The notes beneath the pieces are model-generated. The model saw only the letters and a program-made list of their open reading frames with translations, did not search any database and was not told where the DNA came from. A program made the translations under genes and the position numbers. This document shows positions 13,912 through 62,682 of a stretch of DNA of 64,000 nt, one piece after another (within the stretch, counting starts at the first letter, position 1; each line of letters opens with the position of its first letter). The DNA is from Candidatus Nomurabacteria bacterium (GTDB lineage Bacteria > Patescibacteriota > Minisyncoccia > Phycocordibacterales > UBA5272), in assembly GCA_040376695.1 (NCBI GenBank), contig JBEIQD010000002.1:14633-78632 (forward strand). Direction: 5' to 3'.

Positions 13912-14080
13912 AGTTTTGAAATAATACCTTATTTTAGCTAAATATGCAAGACATTTTATGGAAAAGGCTACCATATCTATATCATTGACAATATACAACA
14001 AAAGTTGTAGGATGCGAAACAGGTGTTGTTTAACAACAAACAAGTAAATAGGTCTCATAATTTTCAAGAAAGGAAGTGAT

Positions 14081-29574: not shown

Positions 29575-30897
29575 ATGAATGATGATACAAAAAAACAGAA
29601 AAGCGTAGAAGGAAAAAAGGAAGCCCCTACTTCACTTAAAGGTATGCATGACATCATGGGTGATCAGTATTATGCGTACCAAGGTCTTTTTGAAAAAGCA
29701 CAAGAAGTCGCTGTGTATTATGGATTCAAGCCCATCGAAACTCCAGTATTAGAAAAAGAAGAAGTGTTCACCTCAGCTCACGGCGAAGGAACCGACATTA
29801 TCGACAAGGAGATGTACACCTTCCGAGGTAAGGGAGCTGACAGATTAGCAGTACGCCCTGAATACACAGCAGCGGTTATGCGTGCGTATCTCGAGCATGG
29901 CATGGCAAATCTCCCTCAACCGGTCCTCCTTTATTCATACGGTCCAGTATTTCGTCATGAAAATCCTCAAAAAGGACGTCTTCGACAATTCAGACAGTTC
30001 AACCTAGAAATTCTTGGTACTGAGAAATCAATTGCTGATGCCCTCATCATTCGCACTCTCACAACCATCCTTGAAGAATTTGGGTTTAAGGATCTTATTG
30101 TTGATATTAACTCAATGGGAGACAAGGAGACTCGTCCAGCTTTTGTTAAGGAATTAACGAACTACTATAAAAAGCATCTTGAACAGCTTTGTAAAGATTG
30201 TCATGAACGTATTAAAACTAACCCTCTTCGTCTCTTGGATTGCAAAGTAGAGAGCTGCCAGCCGTTTAAAGAAAATGCCCCTTCTTCACTTTCGTTCCTC
30301 TCAAATGACGCACGCCACCACTTTAAGGAAGTGCTTCAATACTTGGAAGAAATGGGAATTCAATATCGTATTAACAACTCACTTGTTCGAGGACTTGATT
30401 ACTATTCACGTACCGTATTTGAAATCATCAAAATAGACGTAGACGAAAATGGAAAGGAAAAAGATATCACCATCACAGGAGGAGGTCGCTATGATTACCT
30501 AGGAAAAATGATGGGGTCTAAAAAAGATGTTCCTTCTGTTGGAACAGGACTTGGTATGGAACGTATTATGATGTTCCCAGAGTGTAAGCAACTTCCACCT
30601 CGTATCATGAAGCCTCCGAAGGTCTACTTTATTCAACTTGGATTTGAAGCAAAACTAAAGAGTCTCTGTGTCATGGAAGTATTGCGTAAAGCTCGTATCC
30701 CGGTACACCAGTCAGTAACAAAAGACTCTCTTGGTGCACAATTAGGACTTGCTGAGAAAATGGAAATTCCATACTGTATTATTTTTGGACAAAAAGAAGC
30801 CATGGATAATACCGTAATCGTACGCAACATGAGCACTCATTCTCAGGACACTGTGAAGATTGATGCGCTTTCAGATTACATCAAGCATTTAAAGTAA
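29575..30897 (+). CDS. hisS: Histidine--tRNA ligase
   Basis: Class II motifs; LRLLDCKVESCQ, GGGRYDYLG; 440 aa. Confidence 0.9.
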   Translation: MNDDTKKQKSVEGKKEAPTSLKGMHDIMGDQYYAYQGLFEKAQEVAVYYGFKPIETPVLEKEEVFTSAHGEGTDIIDKEMYTFRGKGADRLAVRPEYTAAVMRAYLEHGMANLPQPVLLYSYGPVFRHENPQKGRLRQFRQFNLEILGTEKSIADALIIRTLTTILEEFGFKDLIVDINSMGDKETRPAFVKELTNYYKKHLEQLCKDCHERIKTNPLRLLDCKVESCQPFKENAPSSLSFLSNDARHHFKEVLQYLEEMGIQYRINNSLVRGLDYYSRTVFEIIKIDVDENGKEKDITITGGGRYDYLGKMMGSKKDVPSVGTGLGMERIMMFPECKQLPPRIMKPPKVYFIQLGFEAKLKSLCVMEVLRKARIPVHQSVTKDSLGAQLGLAEKMEIPYCIIFGQKEAMDNTVIVRNMSTHSQDTVKIDALSDYIKHLK

Positions 30898-34831: not shown

Positions 34832-35755
34832 ATGAATACTCTTTACGATCTTATCATTATTGGAGGAGGTCCTGCTGGCACCGCAGCGGCCGTATACGCC
34901 GCAAGAAAGCAACTTAAAACACTTTTGATACTTAAGGAGTGGGGCGGACAATCAATCGTCTCAGATGACGTACAGAACTGGATAGGAACACCTCATATCG
35001 CAGGAGCTAAGCTTGCTGATGCGTTGAAATCTCACGTTATGGAATACAAAGGAGATATCCTTACGATTGCAGAAAATGAGCTAGTCCAGAATATTTCTGG
35101 AGCGGACGGTGACTTCAGTATCACTACCGACAAAAATACCTTCAACGGAAAAACTGTTCTTATTGCTACAGGGTCTTCACGAAGGAAACTTGAAGTACCA
35201 GGCGCAACAGAATATGAAAACAAAGGTATTACCTACTGTGCGTCATGTGACGGACCTCTCTTTTCAGGAATGGATGTAGTTGTAGTTGGAGGTGGAAATG
35301 CAGGATTTGAGTCTGCAGCACAACTTCTCGCCTACTGTAAAAGTGTTACCCTTCTCTCAAGAAGTGAACCTCGAGCAGATGCAATCACTGTAGAAAAACT
35401 TAAAGCTCGTGAGCATTTCAAACTTGTCACTAACGCAATTCCAAAAAGCATCCAAGGTTCTGTATTTGTTGAATCAATCACCTACACCAAAACGGACACT
35501 GACGAAGACATCACTCTTCCTGTTTCTGCAGTATTTGTGGAAATTGGACCAATCCCTGCAACTTCATTTGCAGCAGGTGTTGTAGACATGACGGAAATAC
35601 ATACCATCAAAATTGACCCTCGAACACAAGAAACTTCAGTTAAAGGAATTTGGGCGGCTGGAGATTGTACCGATGTACTCTATCACCAGAACAACATAGC
35701 TGCAGGAGATGCAGTGAGAGCGCTCGAAGATATCTATCTTCACATTCACGCCTAA
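34832..35755 (+). CDS. trxB: Thioredoxin-disulfide reductase-like FAD/NAD(P) oxidoreductase
   Basis: LIIIGGGPAGTAAAVYAAR and redox-active TYCASCDG. Start at MNTLYDL with TATACT 9 nt upstream. Confidence 0.8.
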   Translation: MNTLYDLIIIGGGPAGTAAAVYAARKQLKTLLILKEWGGQSIVSDDVQNWIGTPHIAGAKLADALKSHVMEYKGDILTIAENELVQNISGADGDFSITTDKNTFNGKTVLIATGSSRRKLEVPGATEYENKGITYCASCDGPLFSGMDVVVVGGGNAGFESAAQLLAYCKSVTLLSRSEPRADAITVEKLKAREHFKLVTNAIPKSIQGSVFVESITYTKTDTDEDITLPVSAVFVEIGPIPATSFAAGVVDMTEIHTIKIDPRTQETSVKGIWAAGDCTDVLYHQNNIAAGDAVRALEDIYLHIHA

Positions 35756-36099
35756 GAACTTTGACTTTTCTTTTTTGGGATAGAAGCTACGGAAAGCGCT
35801 ATGTCTAACCATTCCTGCAGCTCACTTCTACTTTCTATTATTTCTTCTGGAACTAAAAAATAGTTCATTCCTTGTTCTTTCCCTTCTTTGGTATAGCTAA
35901 ATTTTCTTGACCCTCGAGACAGATACCATTCCGCTAATTCGTTTGACCCCTTAAACCAAAGTTGATCGTCCCCAACAATTGCAAATACTTTTCCATCAGC
36001 ATAGAGAGTGTAGCCACCCATCATGGCTCGAGACGTTACATGAAGTGACTCTTCAAAGACATCTCCCAACAAGTACTCAAGAAATGGTGTACTTTTCAT
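35752..36099 (-). CDS. TfoX N-terminal domain protein
   Basis: MMGGYTLYADGKVFAIVGDDQLWFK matches the TfoX_N (Sxy) core. Confidence 0.6.
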   Translation of the reverse strand: MKSTPFLEYLLGDVFEESLHVTSRAMMGGYTLYADGKVFAIVGDDQLWFKGSNELAEWYLSRGSRKFSYTKEGKEQGMNYFLVPEEIIESRSELQEWLDIALSVASIPKKKSQSS

Positions 36100-36111: not shown

Positions 36112-36663
36112 TTACACTATGTTTGCAATCGCTGAAATGATAAGGTAACAGCCAATCGTATCCAATATATAGGTAAGCACAACAAGTTCCCAGAATTTTA
36201 TTTTTGACACACCCATGAACGTGAGTCCTATTTCATCAGGTAATGGAGATGCAATTATTATGCCCCCTAAAATACCAAGGCAAACCTTGGCAATTTTTGT
36301 TTTTGTTGCCCTTGCAATCATTTTCTTTGCGCGATCTCCCAGTTCATTTAAAATAACATCCTTAATAAACCTGAATATCAAAAGATCTGCCAAGAGTCCA
36401 CCGAGTGCAGCAATTAAAGATAGCGGCAGAACCATTTCTCTTGTGATGGAAAGCTCAGAAAAAAGCAACACAGAGAGCCCTGCGGTAAATGAAAATGAGT
36501 ACATAGCTCCTGACAAGAATACATAAATGATTTCATTTGTTTCTGCTGCCTTTGCGGCATACGTATCGATAATACCCAAACGCCCTACTGCCCACGCAAT
36601 CAAAAACGTGATAAATAGAATAATCGTATATTTATAGCGATGCATATATAGAAAGTATATCAT
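36112..36663 (-). CDS. Hypothetical integral membrane protein
   Basis: 183 aa, 5-6 TM helices. Confidence 0.45.
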   Translation of the reverse strand: MIYFLYMHRYKYTIILFITFLIAWAVGRLGIIDTYAAKAAETNEIIYVFLSGAMYSFSFTAGLSVLLFSELSITREMVLPLSLIAALGGLLADLLIFRFIKDVILNELGDRAKKMIARATKTKIAKVCLGILGGIIIASPLPDEIGLTFMGVSKIKFWELVVLTYILDTIGCYLIISAIANIV

Positions 36664-36735
36664 TAGAATACCTCTATTCTCTTGTGCTTCATACTATTTC
36701 ACATATGGATATAGCCTATATGCTATACTTTTTTC

Positions 36736-38256
36736 ATGAATGAAGCGTCTGAAATACAGAAAATTGCACAGTTTATTAAGCATATTCGTCAACAGCAAGG
36801 TATCACTCAAGAAGAATTTGCTAAAGCCTTAAAAACTACCCAAAGTGCAGTTGCTCGTATTGAAAGTGGTAACCAAAATATTACTATTGAACAACTCTCA
36901 AAAATCAGCGAAGTGCTTAAGCGGCCGATACTCTCGCTCAATGATACTATCGATTTTCAAGTAGAAGGAGAAAGGAAACTTTCTGGATCTATTGTCACCA
37001 ACACCTCAAAAAATGGTGCCATCAATATGATGGTCGCAGCTCTTGTAAACAACGGGACCACTGTTCTTCATGGTATCCCACATATTGAAGAGGTATATCG
37101 CTATAAAGAACTCTTGGAGAGTGTGGGTGTAAAGATCCGCTGGACCCACAATGATAGCGCTCTTGAAATTACTCCAGGTAAAAAACTATCCCTTACAAAA
37201 ATAGATAAAGAGGTTGCTGCACGCATTCGATCATTCACGTTTGCCGGAGCTTTTATTCACTATACCAATAGTTTTAACCTACCTCATTCCGGAGGATGCA
37301 AAATGGGAGAACGAACCGTTGCAAGCCACAAGTACGCCCTAGATTACTTAGGGGTAACCGTGGTTACGAAAGAAAACCATTACGTGGTTTCTCATAAGGA
37401 ACTTAAATCGGGGTCAACAATTCCCCTCTACGAAGCATCTGATACTGGCGCCATAACAGCCATTATTGCCGCTTCAAAAATTGAAGGAAAGACAACTATT
37501 AAATTTGCACCACCAAATTATCAAGTACAAGATGTTTGTTTTCTTCTAGAGCGATACGGAGTAAAAATAGATGGCATTGGGACTACGACACTTATTGTGC
37601 ATGGAAAAAAGAACATAGACGTGAATATCGAACATTACAATAGCGAGGACCCTATTGAGAGTATGTTCTTTATTGCTGCTGCGATTGTTACCAAATCAAC
37701 GCTCACTATTACACGTTGTCCAATCGATTTTCTTGAACTTGAGCTTGAAAAGTTAAAGCGAATGGGGCAAAAATATAAAATTTCCAAAGTGTACAAAGCA
37801 AAAAACGAAAGAACCTCTCTTGTAGATATTACTATCACTCCATCAAAGCTTATTGCCCCACATGAAAAGATAGCGGCCCAACCATACCCGGGAATTAATA
37901 ATGATAATTTACCTTTCTTTGTACCTATTTCACTCATGGCAGAAGGTCAAACCCTCATCCATGACTGGACATGGGAAAACAGAGCAATCTATTTTACAGA
38001 GCTTAACCGTCTTGGAGCTGACATTAAACTCCTAGACCCTCACCGAGCCCTTATAACAGGAAAGAATCGACTTCGAGGTGCACAGATTGTTTCACCTCCC
38101 GCACTTCGCCCGACAGCCATCATTCTTATTGCCATGCTTGCTGCCGAAGGAACATCCCTTCTTCGCAATGTGTATTCAATCAAACGAGGGTATGCTGATA
38201 TCGCTGAGCGCCTCAATTCTATTGGTGCAAAGATAACTGTTTTAAAAGGTATCTAA
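36736..38256 (+). CDS. murA: UDP-N-acetylglucosamine 1-carboxyvinyltransferase with N-terminal XRE-type HTH domain (fusion)
   Basis: Residues about 1-65 form an HTH_3 domain (QQGITQEEFAKALKTTQSAVARIESGNQNITIEQLSKISEVL). The remainder aligns along the full length of MurA (KNGAINMMVAALV...; PHSGGCKMGERTV with the catalytic Cys; C-terminal LRPTAIILIAMLAAEGTSLLRNVYSIKRGYADIAERLNSIGAKI). TATACT 8 nt before the ATG. Confidence 0.8.
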   Translation: MNEASEIQKIAQFIKHIRQQQGITQEEFAKALKTTQSAVARIESGNQNITIEQLSKISEVLKRPILSLNDTIDFQVEGERKLSGSIVTNTSKNGAINMMVAALVNNGTTVLHGIPHIEEVYRYKELLESVGVKIRWTHNDSALEITPGKKLSLTKIDKEVAARIRSFTFAGAFIHYTNSFNLPHSGGCKMGERTVASHKYALDYLGVTVVTKENHYVVSHKELKSGSTIPLYEASDTGAITAIIAASKIEGKTTIKFAPPNYQVQDVCFLLERYGVKIDGIGTTTLIVHGKKNIDVNIEHYNSEDPIESMFFIAAAIVTKSTLTITRCPIDFLELELEKLKRMGQKYKISKVYKAKNERTSLVDITITPSKLIAPHEKIAAQPYPGINNDNLPFFVPISLMAEGQTLIHDWTWENRAIYFTELNRLGADIKLLDPHRALITGKNRLRGAQIVSPPALRPTAIILIAMLAAEGTSLLRNVYSIKRGYADIAERLNSIGAKITVLKGI

Positions 38257-42971: not shown

Positions 42972-42975
42972 TCGA

Positions 42976-43019
42976 GGCAAAAGAAAAACGATATCTTACG
43001 ATATCGTTTTTCTTTTGCC
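42976..43019. repeat. 44 nt perfect AT-rich palindrome (copy A), bidirectional terminator-like
   Basis: GGCAAAAGAAAAACGATATCttacGATATCGTTTTTCTTTTGCC. A 36 nt core recurs at 56284-56319. Confidence 0.6.
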
Positions 43020-43251
43020 TCGCAAACCGTGGTGGTGAGCGTGGCATGCTCCAAAATAAGTGCCTTATGTGAGCGCGGTCGCTCACCGCAACGAATTGCG
43101 AATGAGCACCACCTCTCTAGTGTACAACCTCTGCTTTCTAGTTTCAAGGCTTAATTAAAAAACGTAAAGGGCCATCCGAAGATGACCCAATGCGCAGGCA
43201 TTCATTTATTTTGTGGGCACGCCAATTGGCGCTCACCCTATAATTGTACCC
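43020..43251 (-). other. GC-rich hairpin-dense 3' region downstream of the 43252 gene (structured RNA candidate, copy A)
   Basis: Contains a UUCG-tetraloop hairpin (GGGTCATCttcgGATGGCCC), GTGAGCG/CGCTCAC and GGTGGTG/CACCACC helices. Architecture parallels 56320-56542. Confidence 0.3.
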
Positions 43252-54484: not shown

Positions 54485-56239
54485 TTATTCTTCTTGTAGA
54501 AGTTTCCGTAGAACACCCTCTTCAACCTCTCTTCTTTTCTGTTCAACTTCTTCTCTACGTGTTTCTATGTTTGCAGCGCTTGCTGGCGGGATTACTTCTC
54601 GTTCATTCATGGCCTTTGCAAGAGCGTCTTTAAGGGAAACTGCTGGCTTATCATCAAATGAAGCTGGTTGTCTCTCTTGTTGTGGTGCAGGATTTGGTCG
54701 TGTATCTCGCCTAGCATCATCACGTCTGTCACCTTGTCGCCTCTCGTCAGTTCTCCTTTCTGTTTTTCGGTTATCATTTTGTGAATAGCTTGGAGTTCTT
54801 GATTCCTGTCTATATTCAGTTCTTTGCTGAGGCTTATGCTCAGATCTTTGTTCATTTCTTGGAAGCGGAGTGTCATTGCGTATCTCTCGAACCTTCACGA
54901 CCGCCTGGTCTTGCTTTGCAGCTTGTGGAACTTCTTTTATTATCGGCTTATAAAACTCTGTTACTTCGTTAGTCACATCATCTACTGGTTTACCGTAGGT
55001 TGCCCGAGAATAGGCAATAATTGCCTGAGCATGAGAATGTGCAGGACGAACGATTGGATCAAGCGTGTGGGCAGAAAATGGCTTAGAACCCACCCCGTCA
55101 ATCATAAGACGAAGATAGATTTGATACGCCGAAAGATTCACGATGTCATCCATAATGAAATATGGCGCAAACTCCTTTTCAAAAGCTTCAGCGTCAGTTG
55201 CTCCCACTCGGAAGGTAATCATCGTACCCACGTTTCCAAAGACCGCAGCCTTCACTTCATCTTCCATTTGCTCAATATACTGATGGGCAACGGTGAGCGC
55301 AAGATTATACTTTCGTGACTCTGAAAGAATAGATGCAAACGATTCATTGGCGAAGTTCTGAAACTCATCCACATAGAAATAAAATGGAGGAAGTTTTTCA
55401 AGTTCGTACGGCCCAGCGTCTGCTCGAGACATTGCAGCTAAATATATTTTTGTAATCAAAAGAGAACCGATAAGGTTTGCATTTCCTTCTCCCACTTTTC
55501 CTTTTGAAAGATTCACAATAAGAATCTTTTTGTTATCCATGATGTCTCGGAGATCAAACGATGTCTTCTGTTGTCCGATGATGTTACGGATGAGAGGGTT
55601 TGAGATAAACTGCCCAATCTTATTTTGAATTCCAGGCGCTGCCTCTTGTTGATACTTATCTCCTGCTTTCGCATACTCCTCTTCCCAGAATGATTTTACG
55701 GAAGGGTCTTTAACATTACTCACAATAAATTTTCTGTACTCTTTATCGTTAAGCATTCTGTTTACGCCGAGCAATGACTGTCCTTCGTTTTCAAGAAGAG
55801 CAAGGATAATGTTATTTAAAATATATTGAATACGATCAGAGAATCGTTCTTCACCGAACACTTTCTTAAACGCTGCCATAAGACCGTTTGCAACCAAGTG
55901 ACGCTTAGATGTTTCAACTTTTTCAAGCACATTCAACCCCATTGGGTGTTCACTATCAAACGGTGCAAAATAAATAACGTCTTTAATACGAGACTCAGGA
56001 ATAAAGTCGAGCAACTTTTCTGCCATAGAGCCATGAGGGTCAATCACGCACAAACCTTCTCCGTTTTGAATATCCTGCACAGCAAGATTCTCAAGAAGAG
56101 TCGATTTACCCATACCTGTCTTTCCAATGATATAGGTATGACGAGTTCGATCACGCTCTTTAATCCCAAACGTGATTTGTTTGTTACGAAAATCAACCTT
56201 TCCTATATAAGTTACTTTTTCCTTGTGAGGATCTGACAT
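54485..56239 (-). CDS. Soluble VirD4/TraD-like (type IV coupling protein family) P-loop ATPase with charged low-complexity C-terminal tail
   Basis: HTYIIGKTGMGKSTLLENL..VIDPHGS; Walker B FYFYVDEFQNF; LTVAHQ. No N-terminal TM segment. C-terminal 130 aa rich in R/D/E/Q. Start at 56239 (MSDPHKEK) with TATACT 8 nt upstream. Confidence 0.5.
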   Translation of the reverse strand: MSDPHKEKVTYIGKVDFRNKQITFGIKERDRTRHTYIIGKTGMGKSTLLENLAVQDIQNGEGLCVIDPHGSMAEKLLDFIPESRIKDVIYFAPFDSEHPMGLNVLEKVETSKRHLVANGLMAAFKKVFGEERFSDRIQYILNNIILALLENEGQSLLGVNRMLNDKEYRKFIVSNVKDPSVKSFWEEEYAKAGDKYQQEAAPGIQNKIGQFISNPLIRNIIGQQKTSFDLRDIMDNKKILIVNLSKGKVGEGNANLIGSLLITKIYLAAMSRADAGPYELEKLPPFYFYVDEFQNFANESFASILSESRKYNLALTVAHQYIEQMEDEVKAAVFGNVGTMITFRVGATDAEAFEKEFAPYFIMDDIVNLSAYQIYLRLMIDGVGSKPFSAHTLDPIVRPAHSHAQAIIAYSRATYGKPVDDVTNEVTEFYKPIIKEVPQAAKQDQAVVKVREIRNDTPLPRNEQRSEHKPQQRTEYRQESRTPSYSQNDNRKTERRTDERRQGDRRDDARRDTRPNPAPQQERQPASFDDKPAVSLKDALAKAMNEREVIPPASAANIETRREEVEQKRREVEEGVLRKLLQEE

Positions 56240-56283
56240 AATAAATAGTATACAGGTAATACCATAGGGGTGACAGTGGATGT

Positions 56284-56319
56284 GCAAAAGAAAAACGCTA
56301 TCTTACGATAACGTTTTTG
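56284..56319. repeat. AT-rich palindrome copy B (one mismatch relative to copy A)
   Basis: GCAAAAGAAAAACGCTATCttacGATAACGTTTTTG. Confidence 0.6.
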
Positions 56320-56340
56320 TGGTGAGTGAGCCGCTGGAAC

Positions 56341-61019: not shown

Positions 61020-62660
<1,641 letters not shown>

Positions 62661-62666
62661 ATTTAA

Positions 62667-62682
62667 TAGAGTGTGACAAAAG
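62667..62682. repeat. 5' arm of the 16S processing stem
   Basis: TAGAGTGTGACAAAAG, 6 nt upstream of the mature 16S 5' end. Confidence 0.6.

Follow-up and report, generated by a model that had tools for sequence, protein, structure and literature searches.

We analysed a window of Candidatus Nomurabacteria DNA (the whole 64,000-nucleotide stretch of contig JBEIQD010000002.1, to which coordinates refer unless another locus is named) that contains an unusual murA gene. This open reading frame (ORF), 36736–38256 on the plus strand, is complete, starts with ATG and encodes a protein of 506 amino acids plus stop, in which an N-terminal helix-turn-helix (HTH) domain of the XRE/Cro-C1 type (residues 1–65, 36736–36930) is followed by a full-length MurA (UDP-N-acetylglucosamine [UDP-GlcNAc] 1-carboxyvinyltransferase) domain (residues 73–506, 36952–38253). 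MurA catalyses the committed step of peptidoglycan synthesis and is the target of fosfomycin. That the first 65 or so residues form a Cro/C1-type HTH had been proposed in a first-pass annotation of this DNA, and the profile search bears this out, Pfam HTH_3 matching residues 14–65 with E=2.1e-14 and 53.7 bits against a cutoff of 23. A single-chain AlphaFold2 model built from 65 diverse homologues (mean predicted local distance difference test [pLDDT] 89.5, predicted template modelling score 0.82) places helices at residues 6–20, 25–31, 36–43 and 51–61, so that the domain combines a profile score above the cutoff with a helical bundle containing a recognition helix, as an XRE-type HTH does. The recognition helix, T35-Q-S-A-V-A-R-I-E43, is encoded at 36838–36864 (plus strand). 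Among proteins of solved structure, close sequence matches of the HTH include the controller protein C.BclI (2b5a, E=2.7e-4) and other small XRE-type regulators. The linker between the two domains is short, at about residues 62–72 (36919–36951); the HTH_3 match stops at residue 65, the MurA match begins at residues 73–77, and pLDDT is below 50 at residues 66–69.

The annotation had left room for a start codon downstream of the HTH, with the HTH as a separate upstream ORF. In 78 related loci an ATG aligns at or near position 1 (no more than a few codons away), and an in-frame stop frequently precedes it by a few codons; codons 62–97 of the window ORF, read from the sequence, contain no in-frame ATG, GTG or TTG. 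A product lacking the HTH and retaining K92 and N93 is therefore impossible, and the aligned ATGs and the missing internal start together place the HTH in the same protein. The idea of a split gene was likewise rejected, as no HTH ORF was found upstream of the unfused close relatives, including 11 unfused metagenome loci. We thus regard the start codon as secure and the fusion as real rather than artefactual.

The MurA domain is complete, as the annotation had held. EPSP_synthase (PF00275) matches residues 77–493 with E=1.2e-37 over profile positions 2–417 of 417, and the MurA subfamily model PRK09369 matches residues 74–502 with 303.2 bits (NCBIfam cutoff 297), while PRK12830 scores 207 against a cutoff of 552. 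The closest solved relatives are MurA structures (5ujs, E=5e-52, residues 73–503), and Foldseek comparison of the model with solved MurA structures gives target TM-scores of 0.86–0.93, indicating a full-length EPSP synthase/MurA fold at a structure-based identity to Escherichia coli MurA of about 25%. Alignment to the E. coli protein (identical to PDB 1UAE over 419/419 residues) equates K92, N93, R165, C188, R193, D390, R416, R458 and R484 of the window protein with E. coli K22, N23, R91, C115, R120, D305, R331, R371 and R397. The catalytic cysteine loop GGCKMGERTV, already noticed in the annotation along with the C-terminal RGY motif, lies at residues 186–195 (37291–37320, plus strand), with C188 at Cys115 and R193 at Arg120, and R484-G485-Y486 corresponds to E. 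coli R397-G-Y. Model confidence is low at residues 188–191, in a loop whose mobility is seen in solved MurA structures. Across the 78 fused relatives aligned, K22, N23, R91, C115, R120, D305, E329, N330, R331, R371 and R397 are unchanged, and the complete catalytic signature is present in 116 of the 128 aligned sequences of a broader fused set.

The annotation had questioned catalytic competence since Asp123 of the E. coli enzyme appeared to be replaced. The replacement is real, Ala196 occupying this position, but the doubt drawn from it does not hold, because D123 varies in ordinary unfused MurAs too, as do K160, G164 and R232, and the core residues are invariant. Changes that do set the subfamily apart, in fused and unfused members alike, are V163D, E188N and the loss of Asp369; of the Asp369/Leu370 pair, Asp369 is replaced throughout the subfamily (in the 'PPALRP' region) and Leu370 is retained. 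The loss of Asp369 is not disqualifying, since an E. coli MurA carrying Asp369Asn is viable and less susceptible to fosfomycin (PMC4790336). We read the three changes as pointing to altered chemistry at the phosphoenolpyruvate (PEP)/fosfomycin site rather than to a dead enzyme. Neither the 64-kb window nor the flanking DNA of 80 related loci contains a second MurA-like gene, and our best reading is that the window MurA is catalytically competent.

The fusion occurs at more than 200 independent genome and metagenome loci, nearly all from Patescibacteria, plus cultured Nonomuraea. The best 120 of 8000 scored homologues (77–100% identity) all carry both domains, and the named members among them, from Candidatus Paceibacterota, are called simply "UDP-N-acetylglucosamine 1-carboxyvinyltransferase". 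A scan of one genome per species found full-length relatives at 56–98% identity in at least 124 genomes, all labelled as Patescibacteria lineages (Paceibacterota, Nomurabacteria, Kaiserbacteria, Parcubacteria, Minisyncoccia); generic "Saccharibacteria" labels and one "Gracilibacteria" label were on bulk-submitted bins. The nearest of these, at 98% identity, comes from a New Zealand groundwater bin (JAHFMX01). A search with a distant member returned 1881 proteins at E<=1e-20, the best 120 again all fused, from Liptonbacteria, Taylorbacteria, Colwellbacteria, Doudnabacteria, Parcubacteria and others. In metagenomes a MurA-domain relative is encoded in 545 of the 600 matched stretches listed, and 80 loci were retained for comparison, about 68 of them fused and 11–12 unfused. 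Clustering at 50% yields fused proteins with identities as low as about 30%, among which close unfused ones are interspersed. The annotation was right that this MurA is fused, but the architecture is no rarity; judging from these searches, most members of this MurA subfamily in Paceibacteria-type Patescibacteria appear to have it as their usual form.

The annotation had suggested that an inverted-repeat operator might lie near the gene's own promoter, at 36664–36735. When the upstream DNA of related loci was aligned at the start codon, an 18-bp palindrome emerged there, TATAGC-CTATAT-GCTATA at 36710–36727, within the stretch TATAGCCTATATGCTATA and 8 nt before the ATG, which is the predicted binding site of the protein's own HTH. 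It is the sole exact match to TATAKC-N6-GMTATA in the window, where about 0.45 matches with at most one mismatch would be expected by chance. The palindrome is present upstream of 70 of the 76 fused genome loci examined, at a median of 10 nt from the ATG. In the independent metagenome sample it precedes 58/67 fused genes as against 0/11 unfused members of this MurA subfamily (Fisher p=2e-8), and upstream of the unfused gene P0121 there is a tRNA and no palindrome.

The right arm of this predicted operator overlaps a putative extended -10 element read from the sequence, TG-c-TATACT at 36721–36729 on the plus strand (TG at 36721–36722, TATACT at 36724–36729), and the hexamer at operator positions 15–20 is TATACT in 32 and TATAAT in 14 of the 70 loci. 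Because the right arm doubles as a promoter element, all 11 TGnTATA[AC]T sites in the window were compared as a control: the mirrored left arm is complete (6/6) at the murA site only, and the others match at 0–3 of 6 positions. The palindrome is not a generic promoter feature. A consensus promoter scan, which requires a -35 box, did not flag the murA promoter. The position of the -10 element suggests a transcript start at or beside the ATG and hence a leaderless or near-leaderless mRNA. Elements resembling TGnTATA(C/A)T also stand 9–20 nt before the start codons of other window genes (36654–36662 on the minus strand, 41772 on the plus strand, 3139 on the minus strand, and 46393/46397), and these genes have no evident Shine-Dalgarno sequence, which suggests that many transcripts of this organism lack a leader or have a very short one. 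The membrane-protein gene divergent from murA may in fact begin at its second ATG (Met7, about 36645).

Several further matches to the pattern were set aside. The site at 36633–36650 has one mismatch and is contained in the 5' end of the divergent gene; it loses its symmetry in a 98%-identical locus and is best seen as chance, and the sites at 13978 and 20366 (one mismatch each, T/A type) were treated in the same way. Three related loci (L016:2411–2428, L025:343–360 and L030:2447–2464) also contain exact matches, about 1.5 kb upstream of murA. The one in L016 falls within the coding sequence of a TfoX_N domain, a homologue of window 35752–36099, where it encodes E-Y-I-M-Y-D-I; it is probably a coding coincidence, though a second binding site is also possible.

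The sequence of the operator changes together with that of the protein. Half-sites switch jointly at positions 5 and 14, with T/A in 51 loci, G/C in 13 and few mixed, and the state of these base pairs follows residue 35, the first of the recognition helix (K-T-[S/T]-Q-S-A-V-A-R-I-E). In the genome set, Thr35 accompanies 13/13 G/C-type operators, and Ser or Ala 49/49 of the T/A type. Out of sample, in the metagenome set, 9/9 fully G/C operators belong to proteins with Thr35 and 0/45 Ser35 loci have G/C, so that in both sets combined a G/C operator goes with Thr35 in 22/22. In a tree of the MurA domain alone the Thr35-G/C state falls into several separated groups, and it is found at three tiers of identity (76–98%, about 65% and 50–56%). 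The predicted rule of specificity is that Ser35 reads T and Thr35 reads G.

The base that co-varies occupies the unconstrained position 'n' of the promoter motif TGn, and in variants such as TATCTC...GAGATA the -10 hexamer is weakened yet the symmetry retained. No G/T wobble intermediates at positions 5/14 occur among the loci, and as an RNA hairpin the palindrome would be weak (-3 to -4 kcal/mol), which together favour a DNA rather than an RNA element. Taking the retained symmetry and the free 'n' as well, a dimeric DNA-binding protein is favoured over an RNA structure or a bare promoter. The recognition helix itself, T-[ST]-Q-S-A-V-A-R-x-E, is strongly conserved. These comparisons support direct recognition by the HTH of an operator at the gene's own promoter, and with it the suggestion of the first-pass annotation that the fusion could link DNA binding with the first committed enzyme of the peptidoglycan pathway.

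A probable role for this protein, to which we assign a probability of roughly 70% from the sequence evidence, is that of an active MurA that represses its own promoter through its HTH. The N-terminal domain would bind the palindrome at 36710–36727, presumably as a dimer, and occupancy of the operator over the extended -10 element would block RNA polymerase, so that the enzyme would repress its own synthesis, in a feedback loop of a single protein that acts on the first committed step towards peptidoglycan precursors. That the effect is repression rather than activation, that binding is dimeric and that transcription is leaderless are parts of this model which we infer.

A number of observations weigh against this interpretation. 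On the enzyme side, the PRK09369 cutoff is only narrowly exceeded, the score for the murA equivalog TIGR01072 (288.6 bits) is under its cutoff of 392.7, and with Asp369 lost and V163D and E188N present the kinetics or substrate details may differ from those of ordinary MurAs. A second canonical MurA may also exist elsewhere in the genome, our survey covering the window and the 80 flanks. On the operator side, the right arm is the extended -10 element, and part of its conservation is therefore promoter conservation; a clear site is missing from 9/67 fused metagenome loci; the surroundings of the Nonomuraea gene (L085) yielded no operator-like palindrome; and Thr35 is paired with T/A or A/T operators in 3 loci. 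The counts of co-variation are phylogenetically dependent, the tree supporting at least 2–3 separate switches and not 22. Further operator sites, forming a regulon, may lie beyond the 64-kb window. Finally, three loci (L075, L077 and L080) lack the palindrome, and their recognition helix is different. These are 56–57% identical to the window protein, L077 and L080 being labelled Kaiserbacteria, and the helix reads S-S-I-S-E-V-T-K-I-E or T-S-V-S-V-V-N-K-M-E; upstream of L075 and L080 only TATAGCAACATAAT is seen and TATATC-N6-GATATA is absent. The three proteins probably recognise a different operator.

Distant relatives show what has become of the module where catalysis was lost. In 12 distant fused proteins the HTH and its recognition helix are kept, while R91, the Cys115 loop, mostly R120 and R371, and often R397 are gone. 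The genomic context was inspected for 8 of the 12. Five form a subclade (P0129, P0271, P0274, P0130 and P0136, at L081, L089, L091, L092 and L093), and all five are divergent from an operon with a separate unfused MurA (437–452 aa) and MurB and/or Mur ligases. In each of the five a Mur ligase is next downstream of the fused gene (with Ddl between in L081) and an operator is within the shared intergenic region, where in L081 it abuts a TTGACA -35 box. Elsewhere, P0137 comes after NUDIX and sugar-nucleotidyltransferase genes, and the promoter of that operon contains an exact site, P0170 follows murB and relA/spoT with a one-mismatch site 19 nt before its start, and P0140, on a 2.8-kb contig, has no informative neighbours and no operator site. 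In total 7/8 degenerate loci have the operator (the five of the P0129 type plus L086 and L087); that no site was found at L088, a short contig, counts against its generality. The pairing of HTH and operator thus persists to about 30% identity and is tied to cell-wall precursor genes, suggesting that a fusion of this kind can be turned by evolution into a regulator devoted to the cell wall, with a sensor domain derived from MurA. The decay of the catalytic residues where a separate MurA adjoins is indirect evidence that they are needed in the window protein.

Two further features of these loci may be recorded. The separate MurA of L081 (3624–4940, minus strand, 438 aa) keeps K22, N23, R91, C115, R120, D305 and R397, and has Gly at R331 and Gln at R371, so that neither L081 copy looks fully canonical. 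The gene hisS is directly downstream of the pair of HTH-MurA-like and Mur-ligase genes in L089, L091 and L093, and in the window it occupies 29575–30897, about 6 kb upstream of the fused murA; this proximity may be a remnant of a shared gene order.

MurA undergoes a large domain closure on binding its ligands. Because of this closure, and because the MurA fold persists in catalytically dead relatives, it is conceivable, at somewhat below even odds, that the MurA ligands (UDP-GlcNAc, PEP and UDP-N-acetylmuramic acid [UDP-MurNAc]) modulate DNA binding through the open/closed transition. In its fullest form this proposal would make the protein a ligand-gated trigger enzyme: the open or closed state of MurA would control HTH dimerisation, flux through the first peptidoglycan step would directly set transcription, and lineages that acquired a separate MurA would have turned the fusion into a dead, dedicated repressor of divergent mur operons. 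We advance this fuller form tentatively and think it somewhat improbable. If it were true, a large part of the Patescibacteria would control wall precursors through an unrecognised family of MurA-derived transcription factors. The loci described here offer a natural gradation that leads from a putative enzyme-regulator to pseudoenzyme-regulators within mur clusters.

Autorepression could instead operate at fixed gain, MurA dosage being controlled with no effect of ligand or conformation. This is a sub-case of autorepression by an active MurA, and all of the operator evidence is explained equally well by it without allostery. Small XRE autoregulators such as the controller proteins of restriction-modification systems act without ligands, these controller proteins are the closest HTH sequence matches, and the linker is short and predicted to be flexible. 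What the simpler scheme leaves unexplained is why the HTH stays fused to a MurA fold after catalysis has been lost; the MurA-like domain of the dead relatives must add something, such as ligand sensing or dimerisation, and in the active enzyme ligand-induced closure could be transmitted to the HTH. We consider it rather unlikely that a fixed gain is the whole account.

A regulator without catalysis in vivo, in which the MurA domain is a ligand sensor and a housekeeping MurA is encoded elsewhere in the genome, is improbable. It would accommodate the low TIGR01072 score, the absence of Asp369 and the fixed V163D and E188N; sensor-only relatives do exist, five of them beside a separate MurA; and the Nonomuraea genomes, at 10–13 Mb, very probably contain a separate housekeeping MurA, so that the fusion there would be a paralog. 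But the nine core catalytic and substrate residues are invariant in 78 species and kept in 116/128 of the broader set, these very residues have decayed in lineages that have a separate MurA alongside, and no second MurA accompanies the fusion in the window or in the flanks of the 80 loci. Patescibacteria have small genomes that rarely retain redundant enzymes, which also speaks against it. The E. coli Asp369Asn enzyme supports growth (PMC4790336).

The HTH could also tether MurA to a partner at the wall-synthesis or division machinery without binding DNA. There is a precedent for a protein-binding HTH among cell-wall proteins, as the XRE-type HTH of RodZ binds MreB, and FtsA and FtsZ are encoded 2–4 kb upstream in the window. 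This synteny is not conserved, however, the upstream sequence and neighbours differing among loci, and an adaptor would account neither for a conserved promoter palindrome that is absent at unfused genes and co-varies with residue 35 at base pair 5, nor for the strong conservation of the recognition helix; we hold it to be very improbable. Equally hard to credit is a palindrome that is only a promoter or an RNA hairpin with no regulatory link to the fusion, for although its right arm is a TGnTATA(C/A)T element of the kind seen at other window genes, the mirrored left arm is found at murA alone, the co-varying position is the free 'n', variants that damage the -10 stay symmetric, unfused relatives lack the site, and a hairpin would have a weak stem with no G/T wobble and a site mostly upstream of the predicted transcript start.

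Autorepression by an active MurA would set the window protein beside several known systems. With canonical MurA (E. coli, 1UAE) it shares the two-lobed EPSP-synthase fold and the nine catalytic and substrate residues; it differs in its N-terminal HTH, which is present in none of the solved MurAs matched here, in the missing Asp369 and the V163D and E188N changes, and in scoring under the TIGR01072 cutoff. The enzyme-repressors BirA, PutA and NadR, sometimes called trigger enzymes, likewise have an enzyme and a DNA-binding domain in one polypeptide, a likeness seen here at the level of sequence, and an operator at the promoter of their own gene or pathway, as the window site overlaps the gene's own -10. 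BirA has a winged HTH and PutA a ribbon-helix-helix as N-terminal DNA-binding domain, through which the enzyme feeds back on transcription. There is no homology between these proteins and HTH-MurA, which has an XRE HTH and whose target would be the enzyme's own promoter; moreover, their ligand control has been demonstrated by experiment, whereas that of HTH-MurA is only proposed.

Controller proteins such as C.BclI (2b5a), among the closest HTH sequence matches in PDB, bind palindromes that overlap their own promoters, often with leaderless transcripts, but each is a separate protein of about 80 aa that has its own dimer interface and lacks an enzyme domain. Regulators of the BzdR type (PRK08154) combine an XRE HTH with an enzyme-derived, shikimate-kinase-like sensor and are the best analogue of the degenerate HTH-MurA-like proteins; the match of PRK08154 to the window protein is weak and confined to the HTH (NCBIfam, E=6.9e-6), the sensor fold is different, and the window protein keeps its catalytic residues and so would be more than a sensor. 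Known controls of MurA include proteolysis dependent on ClpCP and ReoM in Firmicutes and feedback by UDP-MurNAc. Like the control proposed here they adjust flux at the first committed peptidoglycan step; to our knowledge all are post-translational, acting through partners or small molecules, while control by HTH-MurA would be exerted on transcription, by a part of the enzyme itself.

No description of an HTH-MurA fusion was found in the full-text literature searched, which is no proof of absence, and the design seems to be undescribed, its architecture being visible in databases under the name of plain MurA. If a MurA does read and repress its own promoter, it would represent a new and very compact regulatory solution, in a group of bacteria (the Paceibacteria-type Patescibacteria) for which we know of almost no experimentally characterised pair of transcription factor and operator. 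All named fused proteins are annotated as plain MurA or as an HTH domain-containing protein, a systematic gap in annotation that extends to thousands of database entries named simply "MurA".

The fused protein of cultured Nonomuraea, 48% identical to that of the window, belongs to a cluster of 246 members (e.g. WP_214634277.1) that RefSeq names either MurA or "helix-turn-helix domain-containing protein", and it offers an experimental entry point that does not depend on culturing Patescibacteria. In Nonomuraea sp. NEAU-A123 (L085; JAHFZZ010000002.1, 383304–396833) the catalytic residues of HTH-MurA are intact, and the gene is preceded by a formyltransferase/enoyl-CoA hydratase-like gene and followed by a phage-type integrase and a small XRE HTH gene, so that it may be a horizontally acquired paralog. 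One metagenome bin contains two fused genes (L005 and L031; CAYWEW010000002.1 and CAYWEW010000013.1), 80% and 76% identical to the window protein and each with its own T/A-type operator, which reflects either a true duplication or a mixed bin.

Two other palindromes in the window, AAAAACGATATC...GATATCGTTTTT at 42984–43011 and 56291–56318, had been put forward in the first-pass annotation as possible operators of the fusion. We rejected both, their stems of up to 22 bp being unlike the 6-N6-6 operator in geometry and sequence; they are long hairpins with a TTAC loop, of the terminator or repeat type. The near-perfect hairpins, at 42974–43021 and about 56288–56320, share the core AAAAGAAAAACG(A/C)TATC-TTAC-GATA(T/A)CGTTTTT. 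The first lies just beyond the convergent 3' end of tsaD and has a stem of 22 bp, and the second is immediately upstream of the start of a minus-strand gene (54485–56287), so that the two look like a repeated terminator or an element resembling repetitive extragenic palindromes. The window also includes a 16S rRNA gene (61030–62667, minus strand) of 1638 nt, compared with 1533 positions in the model, with insertions of about 100 nt; such insertions are common in Patescibacteria.

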